From an uncultured Candidatus Poseidoniales archaeon (GTDB lineage: Archaea > Thermoplasmatota > Poseidoniia > Poseidoniales > Thalassarchaeaceae), in the NCBI GenBank assembly GCA_964003245.1, contig CAXFIU010000002.1:7177-71176 (forward strand): a stretch of DNA of 64,000 nucleotides, given 5' to 3'. Every line of letters starts with the position of its first letter. Position 1 is the first letter of the stretch. Made by a program: the position numbers and the translations under genes. Positions 47,762 through 58,731 of the stretch are shown piece by piece. Under the pieces are notes generated by a model. It saw only the letters and a list, made by a program, of their open reading frames with translations, was not told where the DNA came from and ran no database searches.

Positions 47762-48058
47762 TCAAACATTCATTGAAAGAGAGAGTAATTCGCTCTGCCC
47801 TGGATCCAAAACACATACTGCGCTAACAGGGAATGGTTTGGCACATGCAGCACCAAGTTGCCTGTTGACTAAAGTAACCTGATGTAGTGTCACATCGGGA
47901 TGATTTTGTTTTATGTCAGAAATATATTCTTTAGGGCAATTTGCGGCCACTAAGACCATTCTAGCGTCACCTTTTGAACAGGCACTTTTTGTTTGACGTT
48001 GCCCGAAAAGTAAATTTCCTGTACTAATTCCTTGTTTTAATTGTCTTGCTAAATCCAT
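47762..48058 (-). CDS. rpl30e: 50S ribosomal protein L30e
   Basis: LKQGISTGNLLFGQRQT...LVAANCP...LGAACAKPFPVSAVCVLDPGQS matches the L30e/L7Ae-fold consensus. It sits in the canonical position after rpoA''. Confidence 0.7.
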   Translation of the reverse strand: MDLARQLKQGISTGNLLFGQRQTKSACSKGDARMVLVAANCPKEYISDIKQNHPDVTLHQVTLVNRQLGAACAKPFPVSAVCVLDPGQSELLSLSMNV

Positions 48059-48069
48059 AAAAAATCCCC

Positions 48070-49650
48070 CTATAAGTCCTCTGGTATGTAAAATAAGTCA
48101 ACGCTTCCTGTACCTAAGGCAACAGGTTGTCCGACAATAATATTTTCAGTGACACCTCTTAATTCATCTCTCTCACCGATTATTCCAGCTCTAAGAAGAT
48201 GAGTTACTGTTACTTCGAAAGCAGACCTTGCAAGTATACTGTGTTTAGTACCGCTAACTCCATGACGTCCAATAGCACGTACTTCACCCTCACTAGTCAT
48301 TACGTCTGAAACCATCAATAAATGTCTAACATCAACATCGAGACCTGCGCCTTCTAGTGTCAGAAGCATTTCATTAATTATTGCTTGACGTGCTGCTTCA
48401 ATTCCAAGATAGTCATGAATTTCAGTGATATTGTTTGTATAAGTTCTAGATCTGTCTACGCCAGCATATTCACTGACCTTAGATAGATTAGAACCGATTG
48501 TTGAGATATAATATTCTCCAGTTTCAGCATTCGGACCTTGTACGTTAGCCCTCATTATATCTGGAAGACCTTTGAGTCGCAATTTCTTAATTTTCTCCTC
48601 TAATTGGAGTAAAGCAGTATATGTTGGTGGATCAGTAGCAAGAGTTGCTAATTCTTCTTCCTTTGCAACACCTGGTATAATCTTCAAAGTTTTTGGCTTA
48701 TCATCGTTATCTGCTTGAACAAACAACCTTAGAGCACGAGATAATTTATCACGAACTTCTGCACCTGTCATTTTCTTAACGCGAAGATTAGCATTATTAA
48801 GTGAAAGAATAATGTGTCTTTGTGTAATATCTACGTCAATATTGGCTATATCACGTGTTGTTGTGGTTTCTAACCCTGCTGCAATCTCCTGCACCAACTT
48901 TTGGTTAGTTCGAAGAGGTTTGCCTTTTGCATTGTTTTCATCAAGATATATTCTCATTGTAGGAGTCTTAGGCACTTTTCTAGCATCTACAATCTCAATA
49001 ATACGTGGAAGCCCCTGTGTAACGTTTACTGTAGCCACACCAGCATAGTGGAATGTTCTCATAGTCATCTGTGTACCAGGTTCACCAATTGACTGAGCTG
49101 TAGTAATTCCAACAGCTTCGTGTGGATCGACTCTAGAACCTTTAAGATGATCATTAGCAGAACTTACTACTTTCTTTGCTTTCGCAGGAGTCAATTTAGT
49201 CTCACCTCTTGCAATTAGAGCATTTACCAAGTCGTTGGTGATTCTTGGAGACATTGATACATTCAATTTGACAGCTGCATCGGTCAATTGTGAATATAAT
49301 TCAGATTCGGAATCAACATCTCTAAGAATCTGAACCATTTTCGATTCTGTATCGTAAGACTGAATAGGTAGAGATGCTCTTTTAGAGCTTCTACTTCTTC
49401 TTGCAGCCTTTCTTCTCAACAATGTTTTGTCGATCCTAGCCGCTGCTCTCTGAGCAGCTTTTGATGAACCAGCCATTACTTCAAATATTTTTGTAGCCGT
49501 ACCTGAATCAGTACCACATATCTGGGCAATTTGAGAGGATGTTAATACCTTAACGTCATCCCATTTCTTATCATCTGCTAACTTATGAGCATATTCCTCT
49601 TCAATTCCTAAGTCCATCAACTTCTTCTTTGTTGCACTCTTTACTACCAT
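48070..49650 (-). CDS. rpoA2: DNA-directed RNA polymerase subunit A'' with ~100-aa N-terminal HhH-like extension
   Basis: Conserved [25 protein letters not shown] and downstream A'' core. N-terminal [27 protein letters not shown]... is homologous to the RpoH N-terminus. Confidence 0.85.
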
Positions 49651-52600
49651 CAGTTAGCACCTCCTAGCGCGTCATCAAGAACTTGATTAACATCGAATGG
49701 TTCACCTTTTCTACTCCTAGCAGGATCGACCTTGTCTTCACCGTATTCGAATTGAATAATTCTATCAGCAGTGTTCCTTACTGAACGCATATAATCGTCT
49801 GCTACCTTCAAATCATCCATTGCGTTAATCAATCTACGTTGCATGTATCCTGACTTAGAAGTACGAACTGCAGTATCAACTAAAGATTCTCTACCAGAAA
49901 CTGAAAGCATGAAGAACTCTGTAGGCTCGAGACCTCTCTTGAATGAAGATGATACGAAACCTTTCTCTTGAGCTCCTTTCACTCCTCTCATGAAGTGAGG
50001 TAATACTCTTTCTTGGTATCCTCTTTCTAGTCTTTTACCTCTAACCTTAGGTTGACCTATTGAGCCGGCCATCATAGCTAGGTTATCCATTGAACCTCTA
50101 GCTCCTGATGTAGCCATTAACACCGCAGAGTTATCGTCACCGAGGAATTCCTTTGCTACTTTTCCAGATTCCGCCTTACCAGAGTCTAATATATTCAGAA
50201 TATTCTCTTCCAATGTTTCTTCTGCAGTTCTACCAGGTCTTGTTTCATACCTGCGACCATCTTTACCAAACTTTTCTAGTTCGATATTTACATTATCACT
50301 TGCAGTTTTATTAATCTCTGCAATTGCTTCTTTTGCTTCAGGAGGTAAATCTTCATCATCTATACCTGTGGTAAAGCCCATGGCAGTACAAATTGCGATA
50401 GTCATCTTAGTCATTCTATTGATGAACTCAGCCCCCACATCTGGCCCATGGGTTTGAACAACGGCATCTAATAATCTACCATCTTCTGCCCCTATTCCTC
50501 TCTTATCTATTGTTCCAGTAACATTACCATCGCTCACTTGAACATGGTCGCCAGATCTACTCGTGTATTCTAGATTAAATCCTTCTGGAACGATTAGGCT
50601 GAGGACATCAGAACCAAGATATCCAGTAACACCGTCAATCTCTTTGATTTCTGGGAGTTCTCCATCCCAGCCAACAGCTCCTAAAATTTCAATTACCAAT
50701 TTTTCAGGGAGTAATTTTGTACCATGAGTAAGAAGATATGAACCTGATATGTGATCGTGGATTCCACCAATTACGGAACCACCATATCTTGGAGTAATGA
50801 TGTGTTCTTGGACCCGCATCAAAACTTTGGCCTCAGCTCTAGCTTCTTCAGACTGAATGACGTGAAGATTCATTTCATCTCCATCGAAATCTGCGTTGTA
50901 TGGTGTACAATCAGCCAAGTTAAATCTGAAGGTCTTACCTTCCATAACTCTAATTTCGTGGACCATCATCGACATTCTGTGCAAAGATGGTTGTCTATTG
51001 AATATAGTAACATCTCCATCAATCAAATGTCTTTCAATAACAACACCTGGCTTTGGATTACCGTCTCTGTCAAGAGTACTCAATCTATCTTCAACATCAG
51101 TACGATAGGATTCACCATATTCGTCCTCAACAGAAGGACTTCCGCAATGAGGACAGTTAACTTCTAAATGCTCAGGATAATCCTCATCAGGATTTGAATG
51201 CTCCCAAGCCCATCTACTGTGTATCAAAGCACGTGGATCATCAGAAGGAAGACTCTGACCTCTCATAGATCCTTCACTCTCTTCACCTCTTAGATTTGAT
51301 AATGTCTTTTCTAAATCAACACCCCACTCTTCTTCAAGTTCCCCAATGGAATTTCTCCTCATTTGTCTCTTTAGTTCTAAACCAGGAAGGAAATTAGGTG
51401 CTGGTAATACCTGATTCAAATCGGGCCTGTAGCCAGAATAAGGTTCATCATCGCTTCCGGAGTGACAATCAGGATTCATACATCTAAAACCAGCCCAAAT
51501 ATACTTCGTTCTATCAGTTATTCTTACCCTTAGAGTATCTCCACGAATAATATAGTTCACTCCAGGATGCACATCAGGCCCTCTGAGAATCATTTGTCTA
51601 AGCTGTTCCCTATTCCTATTTGTCACCCTCACAGGAACTGTCAATTCCTTAGCGGTTTTAACCGGAATTCCAACCTCATTAATACCCAAATTAGGATCTG
51701 GCGATATTACTGTTCTTGCACAGAAATTAACTCTCTTTCCAGATAAGTTAGAACGGAATCTACCTTCTTTACCCTTCAAACGCTGAGTTAAGGTCTTCAA
51801 TGGCCTTCCTGAACGATGCCTTGCAGGAGGTATACCACTGGTTTGATTATCGAAATAAGTAGTACAGTGATACTGTAATAATTCCCATAAGTCTTCAACA
51901 ATTAATTGAGGAGCTCCCGCGTCACGGTTTTCCCTTAATCTCTGATTAATTCTTAGTACATCAACCAATTTGTGTGTCAAATCATCCTCAGAACGGTCTC
52001 CACTATCTAGAGTAATAGATGGCCTAACTGTGATTGGAGGTACTGGAAGAACTTTCATGATTGTCCATTCAGGTCGACTTGAGTCTTTATCCATACCAAT
52101 AAACAATAAGTGTTCATCAGGGATTCTCTCTAACCATTCCCTAATGTCTCTGGCATTCAACTTATGTTCGCCTTTATTCTCTTTCTTTTCTTTGAAAGTT
52201 GAAGGCTTATCGAGAATAATTTTCCCTTGCTCAGAACCACAATGCATGCATATAGTTCTCTTTTTACTAGAACATTCTTTTTCTATATCTTTAATTATTT
52301 TCTTAAACTCCCTAGAGCCCACTCCGTGTTTAATCATAACATCCTTAACTCTGTCTTGATAATAATCTTGTTCGGATTTCTCGGGGTCAAGAGGGTGAGT
52401 ATTTGGTTGGTCGTGCAGCAGTATTTTGCTACATGAGTTACAGGTAGATTTCAGAGCCATCTTAATCAAATCGGTGAAACCGATATGCATAATTGGCAAT
52501 TCCAGTGCAATATGACCAAAATGACTAGGGCATTCTTCATGTTTATTACCACAAGTTTCACACCTAACACCAGGGTCAATAACACCCATCTTTGGATCCA

Positions 52601-52754
52601 TTAAACCTTGTTTGAAAGCATGTCCGTCATCGCGGTATGTATCAGCAGTCTTTACTTCAACAGCCGACATTTTACGGATTTCATTAGGTTCTAACAATCC
52701 AAATTTAATTGATTGAATCCTCTTAGGGATTTTAGCTGCGTCTCTAGCACTCAT
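49650..52754 (-). CDS. rpoA1: DNA-directed RNA polymerase subunit A' (with lineage-specific Cys-containing insertion)
   Basis: N-terminal zinc motifs ([17 protein letters not shown]). Catalytic [12 protein letters not shown]. 1034 aa including a ~130-aa insert with CMNPDC...CPHCG. Confidence 0.9.
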
Positions 52755-55700
52755 TTTCTATCCTCCAGTTCAAGCCTCATGGCCACCCCGAGACTTTTCA
52801 TTTCGTCCAGAAGTAACTTGAATGCATATGATGTTTGTACAGTATGAACATCCGATCTATCACCACAAACAGGGCAAGACGTAGTCCTGCGTTTCCAATC
52901 GAAATACGCTATGTGACCGCATCCTTTGGTGTTACAAACCATCAAATTCCAGCCATCAGATTCGTCAAGTAGACGATCTTTGATTACCATTGATGCTCCA
53001 TGAGAAATCAAACAATCACGCTCCATCTCTCCGAATCTCAATCCACCTTGACGTGCGCGTCCTTCAGTAGGTTGTCTTGTGAGAATTTGAACTCTACCAC
53101 GACTTCTAGCATGTAACTTACTGCTAACTAGATGATGTAATCTCTGGTAATATATTACTCCAACGAAAACATCGGCAGGGTATTCTTCACCGGTCTCACC
53201 ACTAATCATAGTCTCTCGGCCAGTGTGATTATACCCATTTCTTAGCAATCCTGCACGTAATGATTCTTCTTTTTCACCGGTAAATGCAGTACCATCTATT
53301 TGACGGCCTTCCATAGAACCTACTTTGCCACCAATCATCTCTAGAACATGAGCTACAGTCATTCTGGACGGAATAGCGTGAGGATTAATTAGAACATCAG
53401 GAACTACTCCATTAACTGTAAATGGCATATCTTCTTCATCAACTAATCTTCCAATAATTCCTTTCTGTCCGTGTCTAGAAGCAAACTTATCCCCTAACTC
53501 TGGAATTTTATTTGTCCTTAGTGTGATTCTTACTAGTCTTCCGGAATCCAAAGATTCAGTGACGAATACATTGTCTACCCAGCCATATTCGCCGTTTCTG
53601 ACCATCATTGAAGACTCGCGACGTTCCTGAGCCTGAAGGAAAGCACCCGCTGATTCCTCAAGGAATCTAGGTGGACTTGTTTTTCCAACTAAAACTTTAG
53701 AATCAGGCGATCCACTTGTCAAAAATTCCTCTGGAACAGGTAAACCGTCTCTTTCAAGATGGGAATAACTGTTGAATGATTTTAATCCTTTAATTTCATC
53801 CAGACCTGTCCCCGGAACTTCGATTCTTTCTTCTTGACCGCCAGGGAATCTTTTATTTTCTGCATTGTATGTTCTTATGAATGATGAACGTCCAAGAGAA
53901 CGTTCTACAGATGCACGATTCATGATTACTGCATCTTGCATATTATAACCATGGTGGCTCATAATAGCAACCACAAAATTTTGTCCGCCCGGTCTTTGTC
54001 TAAATCCGGTTGATTTCATTGCCCTAGTGCCAACAATTGACTGCTGAGGATAATGCATAATGTGAGCTCTTGTATCGGGACGAAGTCTGTAATTAGAACT
54101 AGGCAGACCAAGGCTCTGCTTAACCATAGCAGTCCCTCCAGTAACTCTAGGAGTAGAGTTATGCTCAGGATATGGGACTAAAGACGCACATACTCCTAGA
54201 ATCAGTTGAGGATCTATTTCGACGTGAGTATAAACTAGAACTTTGTTCTGCTTTGTTTGTTGTAGAGTTAATTTTTCAATGTCTTCTTGATAGTAATTCA
54301 AAGGAACTGAAAACTCTTCCGTAACTGTATCGCCGTTTGGTAACTGAATCTGGGCGCTTAATTTAGCTTCTTTCTTTTCACTCATATCGCCAAGATTCAA
54401 CCATTCTACTTTAGCAGGATTAATTGGACGAGAATGTTTCGGAGAAAATTCTGGCAAGTCAAATGGCCTAGGTGCTACAAGTAAATCTTCTTCTTCTTCA
54501 GCATCAATCCATTCAACAACTCCAGTATTCACTAAATCGTTAAACGAAAGATCTCCTGCTCTCAAACCATCTAGAGTTCTCTTAGTTAAAACTAAATTAC
54601 CATCTTCAAGTACTAATAGAGGTCTCAAAATTCTTCCCCTATCTGTGTTAATGAATACGTCTTTATTTTCTGAATCGTGACGAATACTAACTTCAGGACG
54701 AATTCTTCCCGAACGGCGGCGGCGTTTGAATTGAGAAACTAATTTATTCGGCCTCTTATGCAAACCAAAAATATCACCATTAACGTGAATTCTAGAACCA
54801 TCTGCCCAACCTGCAGGAGAATCGTCTACTCCCGCTTCTTTCAATAATTCTTTAACTTCGGATTCAGCAACTTCTTCGGAAACATCAATCATTTGTGCAG
54901 CATTTTTCACCAACCCACAGTTCTGACCCTCTGGAGTTTCATTTGGACATAATCTGCCCCAATGAGTAGGGTGAAGATCCCTTGCTTCGAAATGAGGTTG
55001 GCTCCTGACTAATGGGCTCGTAACACGCCTCATGTGAGATAGCGCTGCAAGATATGTAGTTCTATCCAATAATTGACTGACTCCTGAACGGCCACCTACC
55101 CAGTTACCAGTGGCTAATGCGTGCATTATTTTTGATGTTAGAACATCCGGCCTTAGGCACGCATTAATTTTTAAATCTCTTTTTCTGTTGTGGTGACGTT
55201 CGAGCTGATACTTTAAGTCACGTGCCAATTGTTGTAAACTAACACGGAATAAATCTTCAATTAGGTCTCCAGCGAGTCGAACTCTCTTGTTAGCATAATG
55301 ATCTTTGTCGTTAGGGTCTCTGTTTGTAATAGCCATTTCCAATACTTGACGTACAATTCTTCCAAGGAAAATTGCTTTCTTTTCCCTAGCATCTGATGTA
55401 GCACCGAGATGAGGCAATAATTCTTTATCAAGCATATTTTGAATTCTGGACTCACGATATTCTTTTTGTTGGCCGTGTGCAAACTTTTTCTCAAGCCAAG
55501 CAATTGCCTCTTCGGTGTTCTCAACACCATACTCTTCATTGTCTTTAACGTCATTAAGATTTGCAACAGTATATTTCATTGCTTCAACAGGCCCTGCAAT
55601 CGCAGCGAATATTTCTCTATCATTTTCCATCCCTAGAGCTCTCATCAAAAGTACCACTGGAATTGCGGCAGTACCTGCACTTGGAATTTTAACCATTAGC

Positions 55701-56473
55701 ATTCCATCTCTTCTCTTTTCAACATTCAGAGGTTTTCTAACACCATCTTTCTGAGAGAAGATTTTGGCAACTTCAGTTTCATGAGCATACTTCTTATTCT
55801 TTTCAACAGTAACTCTGTTAGGAGCTAGGTCTTCCATAGAAATCAGAACACGTTCGGTACCGTTGATAATAAAATATCCACCAGGATCCATTGGATCTTC
55901 GCCGAACTTTCTTAGAAGCGTCTCATGATATTCAGCATCATCTGCTGAAGTATGAGGAGATAATTTCCTAGGAGATTCTTGACTGCCTGCAATATGATCA
56001 GGGTGTAAATTACAACGAGCAGAGCGAACCATTATTGGAAGATTACCGATATGCACACTTGATTCTTCTATAGAACCATGAGTTTGCCCCGGTTCGGGAG
56101 GTATATCGTCACGATAAATCACGAAATCCATATAAATTGGAGAAAAGTATGTCAATTTACGGATTCTACATTCTAAAGGAGTGGCAGGATGCTCAGCACC
56201 ATTAGCCTCTCTGATAGTTGGATTACCTAATCGTAAGCCTTTCAACCGAACATAAATCTCTTTCTCAAGAACGTCAAGCTTGATAGCTCCTCCTCCATCT
56301 TTTCCACCAGGTATCTCCTCAACAGGTTCATCAGTACCTACGCGGATATTTCGAACAATTTTTTCCATACGGCTTTTACGGCCTTCGCCACCTAAAATTG
56401 TATCATTATACGACATTAATTGATGGTTAACTAGACTTCTTCTTTGAAAATAACTTTCTACAATTTCCTTCAT
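52751..56473 (-). CDS. rpoB: DNA-directed RNA polymerase subunit B (fused B''-B')
   Basis: 1240 aa with GEMERDCLISHGA and C-terminal zinc site CNTKGCGHIAYFDWKRRTTSCPVCGD. Overlaps the rpoA1 start by 4 nt. Confidence 0.9.
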   Translation of the reverse strand: MKEIVESYFQRRSLVNHQLMSYNDTILGGEGRKSRMEKIVRNIRVGTDEPVEEIPGGKDGGGAIKLDVLEKEIYVRLKGLRLGNPTIREANGAEHPATPLECRIRKLTYFSPIYMDFVIYRDDIPPEPGQTHGSIEESSVHIGNLPIMVRSARCNLHPDHIAGSQESPRKLSPHTSADDAEYHETLLRKFGEDPMDPGGYFIINGTERVLISMEDLAPNRVTVEKNKKYAHETEVAKIFSQKDGVRKPLNVEKRRDGMLMVKIPSAGTAAIPVVLLMRALGMENDREIFAAIAGPVEAMKYTVANLNDVKDNEEYGVENTEEAIAWLEKKFAHGQQKEYRESRIQNMLDKELLPHLGATSDAREKKAIFLGRIVRQVLEMAITNRDPNDKDHYANKRVRLAGDLIEDLFRVSLQQLARDLKYQLERHHNRKRDLKINACLRPDVLTSKIMHALATGNWVGGRSGVSQLLDRTTYLAALSHMRRVTSPLVRSQPHFEARDLHPTHWGRLCPNETPEGQNCGLVKNAAQMIDVSEEVAESEVKELLKEAGVDDSPAGWADGSRIHVNGDIFGLHKRPNKLVSQFKRRRRSGRIRPEVSIRHDSENKDVFINTDRGRILRPLLVLEDGNLVLTKRTLDGLRAGDLSFNDLVNTGVVEWIDAEEEEDLLVAPRPFDLPEFSPKHSRPINPAKVEWLNLGDMSEKKEAKLSAQIQLPNGDTVTEEFSVPLNYYQEDIEKLTLQQTKQNKVLVYTHVEIDPQLILGVCASLVPYPEHNSTPRVTGGTAMVKQSLGLPSSNYRLRPDTRAHIMHYPQQSIVGTRAMKSTGFRQRPGGQNFVVAIMSHHGYNMQDAVIMNRASVERSLGRSSFIRTYNAENKRFPGGQEERIEVPGTGLDEIKGLKSFNSYSHLERDGLPVPEEFLTSGSPDSKVLVGKTSPPRFLEESAGAFLQAQERRESSMMVRNGEYGWVDNVFVTESLDSGRLVRITLRTNKIPELGDKFASRHGQKGIIGRLVDEEDMPFTVNGVVPDVLINPHAIPSRMTVAHVLEMIGGKVGSMEGRQIDGTAFTGEKEESLRAGLLRNGYNHTGRETMISGETGEEYPADVFVGVIYYQRLHHLVSSKLHARSRGRVQILTRQPTEGRARQGGLRFGEMERDCLISHGASMVIKDRLLDESDGWNLMVCNTKGCGHIAYFDWKRRTTSCPVCGDRSDVHTVQTSYAFKLLLDEMKSLGVAMRLELEDRK

Positions 56474-56485
56474 AATATCAACTCC

Positions 56486-57088
56486 TCAAGTACTCTCCAC
56501 AATTAATCGGAATGCAGTACTAGATCCAGCAGACCTACTATATCTGACTATTTTCACAATCCTGTTAGTTAGCCAACCAGCAGGAAGTTCCGAATTATTT
56601 GATTCTTCAACCTCTTTAATAGCTTGAATCGCAGGATCTGTAATTAGAACTTTGGGGAGTAATTCCTTTGCCAATCTAGTGCTTCCATCAAAATCAGTTT
56701 GGAGCATATCCCATGGAGCAAGTTGTGCTTCCTCTTGATCAACAGGAACTAATTCATGATGAGGTACTAAGAAATGATTCAGAACATTGAATCTATCTTC
56801 GCCTTGAGGTATGTCATCATCAAGAATTGATTTTCGAGAAATTGTAATTCTTCCACTTCGGCTCCTCTTCCTTGAGGCCATTTGTTCACGAATTATTCCC
56901 ATGATATTTTCGAGTTCATCATCACCAGTTTCCAAACCTACTTTCTTAGCTACTTGATCGACGGTCATTCTCTTGATTGCATCCATGTTTGCATCGTCTG
57001 CAAGTCTGTGGGCATGTTCTTCCGAGACACCCAGTTCCATTAATCTCTTTTTCGTCGAACTTTTTACTGCCAAATTAAACACCACCAT
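56486..57088 (-). CDS. rpoH: DNA-directed RNA polymerase subunit H (Rpb5 homolog) with ~110-aa N-terminal HhH-like extension
   Basis: C-terminal HFLVPHHELVPVDQEEA...LPKVLITDPAIQ...IVKIVRYSRSAGSSTAFRLIV is the RpoH signature. The N-terminus KSSTKKRLMELGVSEEHAHRLADD...VAKKVGLETGDDELENIM contains two helix-hairpin-helix-like motifs. Confidence 0.8.
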   Translation of the reverse strand: MVVFNLAVKSSTKKRLMELGVSEEHAHRLADDANMDAIKRMTVDQVAKKVGLETGDDELENIMGIIREQMASRKRSRSGRITISRKSILDDDIPQGEDRFNVLNHFLVPHHELVPVDQEEAQLAPWDMLQTDFDGSTRLAKELLPKVLITDPAIQAIKEVEESNNSELPAGWLTNRIVKIVRYSRSAGSSTAFRLIVEST

Positions 57089-57169
57089 CCAACAAAAAAC
57101 ATGGGCTTGCGAGCCAGAAATGGACTTTTAGACTGGAAATATTTGTATTATTTCGAGATGATCCTTAAC

Positions 57170-57320
57170 TATGCCGCAGGCCCATAGCATATGCTGGGCT
57201 GTCCTCGGACTGAGGGGGTATTTATCAATCTGATGGTAGAGGCATGGCTACCACTGGACAGGGGGTGCAGGTTAGGAGTTCCCAATCGGCATGCCTAAAG
57301 CAGGGTGGTCAGACATAAAC
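57170..57320. ncRNA. Candidate structured small RNA in GC-rich intergenic island between divergent rpoH and the methyltransferase-BirA gene
   Basis: ~150 nt of markedly elevated GC within a 245-nt AT-rich intergenic gap. It contains the perfect palindrome AGCATATGCT flanked by GCCC/GGGC, and long-range complementarity GGCATGG...CCAATCGGCATGCC. Strand and class are unknown. Confidence 0.25.
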
Positions 57321-57333
57321 GTTTTGAAAAAAT

Positions 57334-58731
57334 ATGCAAAAAAAGGAGGTCATTTGTATGGATTTAGGTGAAAAAGAAAATCCAATTACAGATGTTCAAG
57401 TAATGGATTTCGAATTGGGAAATGGAGAGATCATATCTCTAGAAATTCCTAAAACTGTTTATCCACCTAGGGAAGATTCAGCGTTGCTAATTGATGTCCT
57501 TAGAGATCTAAAAGGCGATGGTTTGGCAATGGAAATTGGTTGTGGATCGGGAATCATTAGTATCATTATGGCTCTGAATAATTGGGTTGTTGAAGCATGT
57601 GACATTAATCCTTATGCAATCGCTGCGGCAAAGGAAAATTCTGTAAAAGCGTGTGTGAATGGAAAAATTAATTTCAAAGAAGGAGGATTTGGAGATGAAA
57701 ACTTCTCGATACCCAATAATACCAAACTAATATTCTGGAATTTACCATATCTAAATCCACCATCGCCAGGCGAACCGAGACTAGGGTGGATAGAAGAAGC
57801 ATCGATGTCAGATTTGGGAGAGAAAGGCTGGGGTCATCATTTAGTAGATTATTTAGAAGAAAATAAAGAGAATTTAGAACCTGATTTGTTAGTAATTCTA
57901 TTACAAAGAAAATATCCAGAGAGCCCTAGCAGTACCAATTATTGGATAAAGCTTGGATGGTCTCATAGAGTGATAAAATCATTATGGATTCATAATGAAA
58001 AAATAGAAGTCGTAGCATACTGGATGCCAGGGCAAGGAGTTCCTGCAACTATTCTAGAAGAGTGTAACTCAACTATGGATGAGGCAAAAAAATTATCTAA
58101 AAATGGATGGCAGAGAATACGTACTGAAAAACAGATTGAGGGAAGAGGTCGAAGAGATTCAAACTGGTCCTCAGACAATAAAGATCTACTCGCCACATGG
58201 AACATTAGTAAAACAATTTTAGAAACAATTAGACCGGGGATTATACAAACCATAGTTGGTACGAGAATTGCAAAATTATTGCAACAATATAACAAATGGC
58301 CTAACGACATTTATGATAAAAAAGGAAAAAAAATAGGAGGGGTTTTGATAGAGATGGATAATCAAGATGAATGCCTAAGAATCGGAGTTGGAATCAATTA
58401 TTCGAATAAAAAAATCGAGGGAGGAGATGCGGTGGGATGGAGCGAAAAAATGCCTGAAACTTCTAAAATAAGTCTTTTCAACATGATTGATGCGACTTTA
58501 TCTACGTTATTTGAGGAGCACAAATTGTTAGATAATAATTTGGCATCGAATAGTATAAAAACGGAATCTTGGAGAGGAATCTCGAAATTATTATCGAGAG
58601 GATACTCGTTACGAATAAAGGATGAAAAGACGAGAGTTGTTGGCATGAATGATGACGGGGAATTAATCACATTATCTGGAAAACGAGAGAACAATACTGG
58701 GAATCTCGATAAAATATATTGGCTATTTTAG
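57334..58731 (+). CDS. Fusion protein: N-terminal HemK/Mtq2-like SAM-dependent methyltransferase + C-terminal BirA-like biotin-protein ligase catalytic domain
   Basis: MTase motif I EIGCGSGIISIIM and motif IV IFWNLPYL (NPPY-type). The BPL region has IEGRGRRDSNWSS (GRGRxGRxW), KWPNDIY and GGVLIEMD...IGVGIN, matching BirA. Confidence 0.65.
   Translation: MQKKEVICMDLGEKENPITDVQVMDFELGNGEIISLEIPKTVYPPREDSALLIDVLRDLKGDGLAMEIGCGSGIISIIMALNNWVVEACDINPYAIAAAKENSVKACVNGKINFKEGGFGDENFSIPNNTKLIFWNLPYLNPPSPGEPRLGWIEEASMSDLGEKGWGHHLVDYLEENKENLEPDLLVILLQRKYPESPSSTNYWIKLGWSHRVIKSLWIHNEKIEVVAYWMPGQGVPATILEECNSTMDEAKKLSKNGWQRIRTEKQIEGRGRRDSNWSSDNKDLLATWNISKTILETIRPGIIQTIVGTRIAKLLQQYNKWPNDIYDKKGKKIGGVLIEMDNQDECLRIGVGINYSNKKIEGGDAVGWSEKMPETSKISLFNMIDATLSTLFEEHKLLDNNLASNSIKTESWRGISKLLSRGYSLRIKDEKTRVVGMNDDGELITLSGKRENNTGNLDKIYWLF

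Follow-up and report, generated by a model that had tools for sequence, protein, structure and literature searches.

Sequence comparison identifies, at the N-termini of two RNA polymerase (RNAP) subunits, RpoH (Rpo5) and RpoA'' (Rpo1C), a pair of paralogous domains of about 62 residues, encoded in the RNAP operon of an uncultured Candidatus Poseidoniales archaeon (family Thalassarchaeaceae; GenBank assembly GCA_964003245.1, contig CAXFIU010000002.1, positions 7,177 to 71,176; “the window” hereafter is this whole stretch of 64,000 nucleotides). The domain and the basic linker that follows it are absent from the solved archaeal polymerases and from the NCBIfam and Pfam models of these subunits, and the same domain also heads ORFan proteins whose contigs appear, from their gene content, to be archaeal viruses or other mobile elements. 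Accessory domains tethered to multisubunit RNAPs are known in kind; what is new here is the sequence family and its unexpected link to mobile elements.

Paralogous Domains Outside the Canonical Subunits

As an earlier note on this DNA had proposed, the two N-termini are homologous: residues 1–50 of RpoA'' align without gaps with residues 6–55 of the longest RpoH open reading frame (ORF), 25 of the 50 positions being identical with 76% positives (BLASTP, E 6e-16). In the window, tblastn with either domain in all six frames recovered these two copies only, with every other match at E ≥0.18. The same note was also right that canonical RpoH and RpoA'' carry no such domains, given that the known chains and the family models all begin downstream of them. 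Seven distinct archaeal Rpo1C chains of the PDB (391–397 aa) align only from residue 132–136 of RpoA'' onwards (E 1e-82 to 7e-82 against residues 132–523), and the equivalog model TIGR02389 matches residues 134–520 with 424.1 bits against a cut-off of 420.65. In RpoH, Pfam PF01191 matches residues 100–196 (41.9 bits, cut-off 23.5, E 8.8e-11) and NF007129, a model of 80 positions, matches residues 98–198 at E 4e-12, but with 45.7 bits, below its cut-off of 83. Archaeal RpoH is described as having no N-terminal extension (PMC3906176), and Rpo5 lacks the jaw of about 130 residues present in Rpb5, thereby exposing a positively charged groove where Rpo13 docks (PMC2675907).

The RpoH of this operon is a divergent member of its family and has about 25 aa inserted internally. 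Its assembly domain (residues 98–200) extends some 25 residues beyond the family models of 73–80 positions, and a phmmer search of the PDB with RpoH found no RpoH/Rpb5 chain, the C-terminal domain being recognised by Pfam and NCBIfam alone.

Translation Starts and Selection on the Extension

One alternative is that the extensions are an artefact, either because a wrong start codon makes us read untranslated sequence as protein or because the similarity is due to chance or low complexity. Gene callers do vary on the RpoH start (variants of 184–236 aa), and the longest rpoH ORF is indeed five codons too long. Nevertheless, the strength of the paralog match, the protein-level conservation in hundreds of relatives with variation dominated by third codon positions, the rank of the domain as the best-conserved segment of RpoA'', a putative Shine–Dalgarno sequence before each proposed start and a confident fold prediction all speak against an artefact, which we regard as extremely improbable and already refuted.

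The sample behind the rpoA'' results consists of the 80 best of at least 565 loci confirmed by a pattern and tblastn scan of GTDB species-representative genomes, one genome per species, and all 80 retained loci are rpoA''. Complete rpoA'' ORFs are 522–527 aa long with the domain at their start in 75 of 76 cases, and their ATG overlaps the stop codon of rpoA' in the relatives (TGATG or TAATG). In the first 60 codons, nucleotide diversity is 0.14, 0.09 and 0.53 at positions 1, 2 and 3, and this dominance of the third position points to purifying selection on the protein. Judged by this codon pattern, the extension is a translated part of the protein on which purifying selection acts strongly; a wrong start, the possibility which the earlier note had raised against itself, is excluded by the fused ORFs, the stop/start overlap and the codon diversity taken together. 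An RNA-level signal behind the N-terminal conservation was considered and rejected: third-position diversity in codons 1–12 is lower than elsewhere (0.33 vs. 0.55–0.61) but clearly present, second positions are invariant, and therefore protein-level selection dominates there too.

In the case of RpoH, more than 100 relatives are 195 aa long and begin with MAVKSSTKK, an N-terminus that mirrors the M-V-V-K-S-A-T-K-K of RpoA'', and the sequence further upstream varies between close relatives. Because of these 195-aa relatives, the unconserved upstream sequence and a GGTGGTG motif 6 nt ahead, RpoH most likely starts at TTG 57073 and not at ATG 57088, from where the longest ORF reads the motif, as the codons ATG-GTG-GTG, into Met-Val-Val.

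Conservation and Distribution

Across 75 species, residues 1–36 are the most conserved stretch of RpoA'', with a majority fraction of 0.95 vs. 0.80–0.89 in the catalytic core, and the linker region is the least conserved (0.55–0.64, the basic linker itself having 0.64). The near-invariant positions of the family (V3, K4, S5, T7, K8, K9, L11, A21, L24 and A25) sit in the N-terminal strand, helix 1 and helix 2, and not in the hairpins.

Extended RpoH proteins have 195 aa in Thalassarchaeaceae and 216 aa in Poseidoniaceae (P0371/P0379), extended RpoA'' proteins (517–530 aa) are named from both, and, going by these named sequences, both extensions occur in both families of the order. When 1.84 billion representative proteins were searched exhaustively with the profile, only 202 clusters came up at E ≤0.001, and the family is therefore a narrow one. 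Every source name on the matches is either Poseidoniales or an unresolved marine metagenome-assembled genome of Euryarchaeota, Methanobacteriota or Thermoplasmatota, and the informative names among the 80 retained rpoA'' loci are all Poseidoniales, in agreement with the lineage-specific module that had been suggested.

Predicted Fold and Family Membership

An AlphaFold2 model built on an alignment of 85 family members (mean predicted local distance difference test score 84.8, predicted template-modelling score 0.63) places helices at residues 5–13, 18–24, 30–34, 38–45 and 49–64, with N-terminal residues bridging to residue 26. The predicted arrangement, two helix-hairpin-helix (HhH) units with a connector helix, is that of the (HhH)2 superfamily, and it is likewise that of the five-helix SAM fold; SAM and (HhH)2 have this one architecture in common. 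Among Foldseek matches in the PDB, (HhH)2 domains rank first (FANCM/FAAP24 with template-modelling (TM) scores of 0.72–0.73, the NusA C-terminal repeat with 0.72, Hef with 0.69), and ERCC1-XPF, TopoV and the RadA/Rad51 N-domains (TM 0.55–0.66, 21–24% identity) are found as well. At 0.15 or worse, the Foldseek E-values are weak, which a domain of only 60 residues would lead one to expect, and the same fold was independently recovered in the model of the N-terminus of P0324, an unrelated carrier of the domain. In this way, the structural search returned a predicted five-helix (HhH)2/SAM-like fold, in line with the HhH-like motifs that the earlier note had read in these N-termini; two such elements are present, however, in both proteins and not in RpoH alone, and instead of the tandem HhH domain proposed there, the two elements make up a single domain of five helices and about 62 residues.

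In contrast with the fold, neither the HhH motif nor any sequence model fits. The signature h-x-x-h-x-G-h-G-x-x-x-A is found in neither hairpin: hairpin 1 reads L-G-[IV]-x-E-E, with a single Gly in 76 of the 85 members and then a near-invariant Glu (E18) directly after the hairpin, where the classical HhH has its second Gly and neutral or basic residues, and hairpin 2 (xDS[GE]T) has a Gly in 33 of the 85 only, followed by Asp/Ser. Pfam gave no HhH match at E ≤1 on the full RpoH and RpoA'', and when the 85 members were scanned singly, there were only scattered sub-threshold matches (Sigma70_r4_2 in 10; HHH_5 in 3, best E 0.021; SAM_1 in 3, best E 0.11), and neither of the Pfam models SAM_1 and SAM_2 recognises the domain. 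No family of Pfam, NCBIfam or PHROGs covers the domain, searched by itself and in ten carrier proteins, and the best match in a profile search of PDB sequences came no lower than E 1.8. The C-terminal domain of the bacterial RNAP alpha subunit (alpha-CTD; PF03118) gave no sequence match and is absent from the listed structural matches, and the Rpb5 N-terminal jaw (PF03871) gave no Pfam match on RpoH residues 1–97, where the predicted fold is all-helical and SAM-like. Membership in the HhH, SAM or alpha-CTD sequence families is thus not detectable by Pfam, by the PDB profile search or in the 85 members. Given that the fold agrees, but the motif and the sequence models do not, we assign the domain to no named family; by its sequence it is a new family, recognised by no current database model.

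The Same Head on Other Proteins

The earlier note had seen the domain on the polymerase only, and while it is indeed on RpoH and RpoA'', it also heads at least 16 unrelated ORFan families. Many matches in the search of representative proteins are neither RpoH nor RpoA'', and the domain sits nearly always at the extreme N-terminus, being internal or C-terminal in two cases, P0314 and P0277. Once polymerase fragments are removed, the downstream regions make up 17 families with at least two members, plus singletons, which we quote as at least 16. The non-polymerase carrier families have conserved C-terminal parts and lengths from about 120 to 1292 aa, and for their lengths we take them as real proteins and not as frameshift debris.

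As a separate observation, many database proteins matching the RpoA'' N-terminus (P0158, P0165, P0193, P0199 and others) are truncated or frameshifted calls, which make short stand-alone copies of the domain look more numerous than they are; some of them lie on contigs of 0.3–1.5 Mb and probably stem from long-read assemblies with indel errors.

Apart from P0314 and P0277, none of the carriers tested has a Pfam or PHROGs family above threshold. P0314, a protein of 851 aa (L085 1012–3567), joins C2H2-type zinc fingers, an internal copy of the domain (residues 92–150, similar to that of MGIIa RpoH) and an AAA_15/AAA_21 ATPase, and ATPases of this kind are found in abortive-infection and OLD-type defence systems. 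The longest carrier, P0291 (1292 aa; L081 1884–5762), has a domain of the RpoA'' type; its Tara contig measures 7 kb and is tightly packed with ORFans, and for the remaining 1230 or so residues of the protein Pfam, PHROGs and NCBIfam gave nothing.

For six carrier families the contigs were read, and all are marine metagenome contigs of 7–39 kb with tightly packed, mostly unidirectional ORFans, similar in content to archaeal viruses or mobile elements. A family of 300–351 aa lies in a conserved cluster (L082 900–8411, L086 58–14694, L087 1791–16348) with a primpol-like gene (sub-threshold), a run of ORFans, a TFIIB/TFB homolog of 315–317 aa, a Holliday-junction endonuclease (PF10107) and a DEAD/ResIII helicase. 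The TFB of this element is 27–29% identical to those of Halorubrum tailed viruses and of the Sulfolobales viruses YNP1 and YNP2, which are also precedents for a virus-encoded TFB. A carrier of 341 aa lies on a contig of about 39 kb whose genes run in one direction (L089 1–21026; also on L090 and L091), in the company of Mom-like and WGR genes, an ERCC4 nuclease, PCNA, the ribonucleotide reductase (RNR) large subunit, a ParA/ArsA-like ATPase and many ORFans, and a cluster sibling is on a contig of 166 kb; this element is probably a large archaeal virus. Among the neighbours of carrier genes, Pfam and PHROGs found no capsid, portal or terminase, the only hits of this kind of search being the sub-threshold primpol-like gene, a Rho_N-like gene, PCNA and RNR. 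The domain profile gave 169 pattern matches in IMG/VR, none of them confirmed, and tblastn against INPHARED found no match for the element-type domain, nor for a 979-aa ORFan of the RNR/PCNA element. Since neither capsid nor terminase was seen and neither IMG/VR nor INPHARED held a copy of the domain, we keep “virus” as a tentative label.

The element copies resemble one or the other host paralog. P0291, P0508 and P0324 match the RpoA'' type at 75–83% identity over the first 36 residues; P0281 matches the RpoH type of MGIIb at 83%, and P0314 that of MGIIa at 75%. These matches suggest repeated exchange between polymerase genes and elements, and they tie the elements to Poseidoniales hosts.

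Charge, Position and Proposed Function

The charge of the domain is divided, with family means of +3.9 in residues 1–12 and −5.0 in residues 13–62, the first helix (KSxTKKK) being basic and the body and hairpins acidic. The linkers after both domains (25–70 residues) are strongly basic and poorly conserved: RpoA'' residues 61–100 have a net charge of +10 in the window, with a mean of +8.2 and a minimum of +6 in the 75 species, and the RpoH linker has about +6 across its first 25 residues (130 relatives). The basic, Ser/Arg-rich linkers of the earlier note are therefore borne out, and from their composition they would be flexible. The acidic body, together with acidic hairpins that have no G-h-G, argues against classical HhH phosphate binding and favours the binding of a factor; the pattern resembles the protein-binding acidic repeats of NusA or SAM domains more closely than phosphate-clamping HhH domains, and the net −5 over residues 13–62 would also speak against sequence-independent binding of duplex DNA by the domain.

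As for position, Pfam Rpb1 domain 5 is divided, 1–66 and 66–265, at the A'/A'' split. The N-terminus of RpoA'' is this split point, which we take, from the architecture of Pol II, to lie just after the bridge helix, in the foot/shelf next to Rpb5. RpoH/Rpo5 forms the lower jaw beside the downstream DNA, and open-complex formation requires it (PMC2847245); in Sulfolobales, Rpo13 fills the groove of the absent Rpb5 jaw with its basic tail reaching the DNA entry channel (PMC2675907). With RpoH at the jaw and the RpoA'' N-terminus at the foot/shelf, both modules would hang from the same face of the enzyme, on tethers of about 30 and 70 residues.

We propose that both domains, flexibly tethered at the lower jaw/shelf of the polymerase, are docking modules mimicked by or docked onto by mobile elements, a reading for and against which we find the chances evenly balanced. 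It is preferred because of the acidic body, the extreme conservation of residues 1–36 and the reuse of the domain as a portable head. The folded domain would work mainly as a protein–protein docking handle, like the NusA acidic repeats, alpha-CTD or SAM; the handles may bind one common factor or associate with domains of their own kind; the basic tethers may lie on the downstream DNA, where the Rpb5 jaw and the Sulfolobales Rpo13 act; and the element proteins, using the same head, would dock onto the polymerase or compete with the handles for a shared partner. Several points weigh against this proposal. The fold model cannot tell SAM (protein binding) from (HhH)2 (DNA binding), and several of its best matches are known DNA binders (FANCM, XPF, Hef, TopoV and the RadA N-domain). 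The N-termini are placed by way of published structures of other species and not by a model of this enzyme. Finally, the viral or mobile nature of the elements is read from gene content, with no capsid or terminase and with IMG/VR and INPHARED devoid of the domain.

The main rival is that these are DNA-binding (HhH)2 modules giving a non-specific grip on duplex DNA, at the downstream jaw or upstream of the promoter, in the manner of alpha-CTD, Rpo13 or the Rpb5 jaw, and that the element proteins are merely DNA-binding. Besides the fold matches to FANCM-FAAP24, XPF, Hef, TopoV and the RadA/Rad51 N-domain, it can count on the weak, sub-threshold HHH_5 matches in 3 of 85 members, on the basic first helix and strongly basic linkers, on the closeness of RpoH to the downstream DNA (PMC2847245) and on the precedent that Rpo13, itself small, helical and with a basic tail, sets at this very site (PMC2675907). 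The domain itself, however, fits it poorly: the body is net −5, acidic residues follow both hairpins (LG[IV]xEE; xDS[GE]T), the G-h-G signature is absent with a Gly of hairpin 2 in under half of the members, no HhH Pfam model reaches threshold, and the most conserved residues are in the N-terminal strand and helix 1 instead of the hairpins. We consider this rival possible, yet on the whole unlikely.

A quite improbable alternative, in our judgement, is that the RpoH and RpoA'' domains form a heterodimer, in the way of ERCC1-XPF, FANCM-FAAP24 or SAM-SAM pairs, and work as a fixed surrogate jaw that recruits no factors. That the top fold matches are domains of obligate hetero- or homodimers, that each enzyme has exactly two paralogous copies on neighbouring subunits and that the two types are kept distinct across the order would all suit such a pair; on the other hand, the long and poorly conserved linkers suggest mobility and not a fixed element, and the heads on many unrelated element proteins are left unexplained. 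The docking, DNA-binding and heterodimer readings are not mutually exclusive.

A further step from the docking proposal, doubtful as it stands, is that the heads form a docking socket of the Poseidoniales RNAP, and that viruses or mobile elements have repeatedly copied RpoA''- and RpoH-type heads onto their effectors, which, by like-with-like attachment or by displacing the handles, would redirect or shut down host transcription. If true, it would be a takeover of transcription by mimicry of a polymerase subunit domain, and one such element also brings its own TFB.

Comparison with Known Systems

The likeness to alpha-CTD, as the earlier note put it, stands for the architecture, with two small tethered domains per polymerase, but not for any sequence or close structural match. 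Both are small helical domains of (HhH)2 type, in two copies per enzyme and each on a linker that is flexible or, here, probably so by its composition, and alpha-CTD is in bacteria the contact point for DNA and regulators. The Poseidoniales domain, in contrast, is N-terminal and not C-terminal, sits on two different subunits (Rpo5 and Rpo1C) instead of a homodimer, and has an acidic body on strongly basic linkers. Also among the closest functional analogies is NusA AR1/AR2, acidic, protein-binding (HhH)2 repeats which, however, belong to a bacterial elongation factor and not to a polymerase subunit, with no detectable sequence relationship. SAM domains are also analogous in function as portable docking units, but they are mostly eukaryotic and are approached here, in sequence, only by the sub-threshold SAM_1 matches. 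In XPF/ERCC1, FANCM/FAAP24, Hef, TopoV and RadA/Rad51, the (HhH)2 hairpins have G-h-G, the surfaces are basic and DNA is bound, whereas the hairpins of the Poseidoniales domain are acidic and without the motif.

Rpo13 of Sulfolobales and Desulfurococcales is, similarly, a small helical module confined to its lineage, with a flexible and highly basic tail, located beside Rpo5 at the DNA entry channel, where it replaces the missing Rpb5 jaw (PMC2675907). It is, on the other hand, a subunit of its own, built on a helix-turn-helix core with a basic tail at the C-terminus, as opposed to a euryarchaeal five-helix module fused to Rpo5 and Rpo1C; the Poseidoniales domain is therefore no Rpo13, being analogous in position and basic tail only. 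The eukaryotic Rpb5 jaw, which is next to downstream DNA and is a contact site for regulators (PMC13257274, PMC2847245), is likewise an extra domain N-terminal to the Rpb5/RpoH assembly domain, but it is larger (about 130 residues), folds differently, shows no homology and lacks a flexible basic tether.

Full-text literature searches found no description of the N-terminal domain of RpoH and RpoA'', and a 2026 survey of variation in the archaeal RNAP small subunits does not mention Thermoplasmatota, Poseidoniales or Marine Group II. The RNAP of a whole archaeal order, very abundant in the surface ocean, bears two extra tethered domains, an archaeal parallel to the bacterial alpha-CTD and, should the position deduced from other polymerases be right, a third independent way, besides the eukaryotic jaw and the Sulfolobales Rpo13, of filling the position of the missing Rpb5 jaw. 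The shared head is also a testable lead on the interplay of elements and host transcription in organisms not yet grown, and the domain family could mark orphan marine contigs as linked to Poseidoniales hosts.

The RNA Polymerase Operon and Neighbouring Features

The RNAP operon lies on the minus strand of a window of low GC content (35–41%) with the genes rpoH, a fused rpoB, rpoA' and rpoA'' in the ORF list, and the subunit identities are backed by Pfam and NCBIfam (Table 1). By its close protein relatives, the window belongs to a Poseidoniales (Marine Group II) archaeon of the Thalassarchaeaceae / Ca. Thalassarchaeum type. The start of rpoA'' (ATG, 49650–49648) overlaps the stop of rpoA' (TGA, 49652–49650). 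The N-terminal domain of RpoH matches the family profile with 87.8 bits, its fold being taken from the family model. The first half of the RpoH linker is basic and rich in Ser, Arg and Lys (ASRKRSRSGRITISRK), and it is followed by an acidic DDDIPQGED; in RpoA'', residues 101–133, which precede the TIGR02389 and PDB alignments, have the lowest conservation of the protein (0.55).

Table 1. Features of the RNAP operon in window coordinates.
Feature	Position	Strand	Remarks
rpoH (Rpo5) coding sequence	56486..57073	-	most likely start TTG 57073, 195 aa
rpoH longest ORF	56486-57088	-	ATG 57088, 200 aa
Putative Shine–Dalgarno GGTGGTG of rpoH	57080..57086	-	6 nt before TTG; proposed from reading the sequence
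RpoH N-terminal five-helix SAM-like/(HhH)2 domain (predicted fold)	56885..57073	-	residues 6-68 of the 200-aa ORF
RpoH linker	56798..56884	-	ORF residues 69-97; not covered by RpoH models
RpoH Rpb5-C-like assembly domain	56489..56797	-	residues 98-200; PF01191, NF007129
rpoB, fused	52751-56473	-	ORF
rpoA'	49650-52754	-	ORF, 1034 aa
rpoA'' (Rpo1C) coding sequence	48070..49650	-	526 aa; TIGR02389, 424 bits
Putative Shine–Dalgarno AGGAGGTG of rpoA''	49658..49665	-	7 nt before ATG, inside the end of rpoA'; proposed
RpoA'' N-terminal five-helix SAM-like/(HhH)2 domain (predicted fold)	49465..49650	-	residues 1-62
RpoA'' basic linker	49351..49464	-	residues 63-100, about +10, Ser/Ala/Arg/Lys-rich
RpoA'' variable region	49252..49350	-	residues 101-133, between linker and core
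RpoA'' canonical core	48073..49251	-	residues 134-526; TIGR02389, PDB Rpo1C

Three further observations concern the neighbourhood. The RpoA' protein is about 150 aa beyond the usual length, and at about residues 420–565 an insertion splits Pfam Rpb1 domain 2 into two stretches; this insertion holds CxxC...CxxC motifs (CMNPDC ... CPHCG) and looks like a zinc-ribbon-like, lineage-specific insert. An ORF of 98 aa on the minus strand (47762–48058) is a putative ribosomal protein L30e, judged by its position alone. Lastly, the intergenic region between rpoH (minus strand) and the gene at 57334 (plus strand), at 57089–57333, had no Rfam match even at E ≤1, but it is GC-rich against the 37% GC of the window and folds somewhat better than shuffled sequences (z −2.3 on the minus and −2.8 on the plus strand), and it might encode an unannotated small RNA or form a structured leader.

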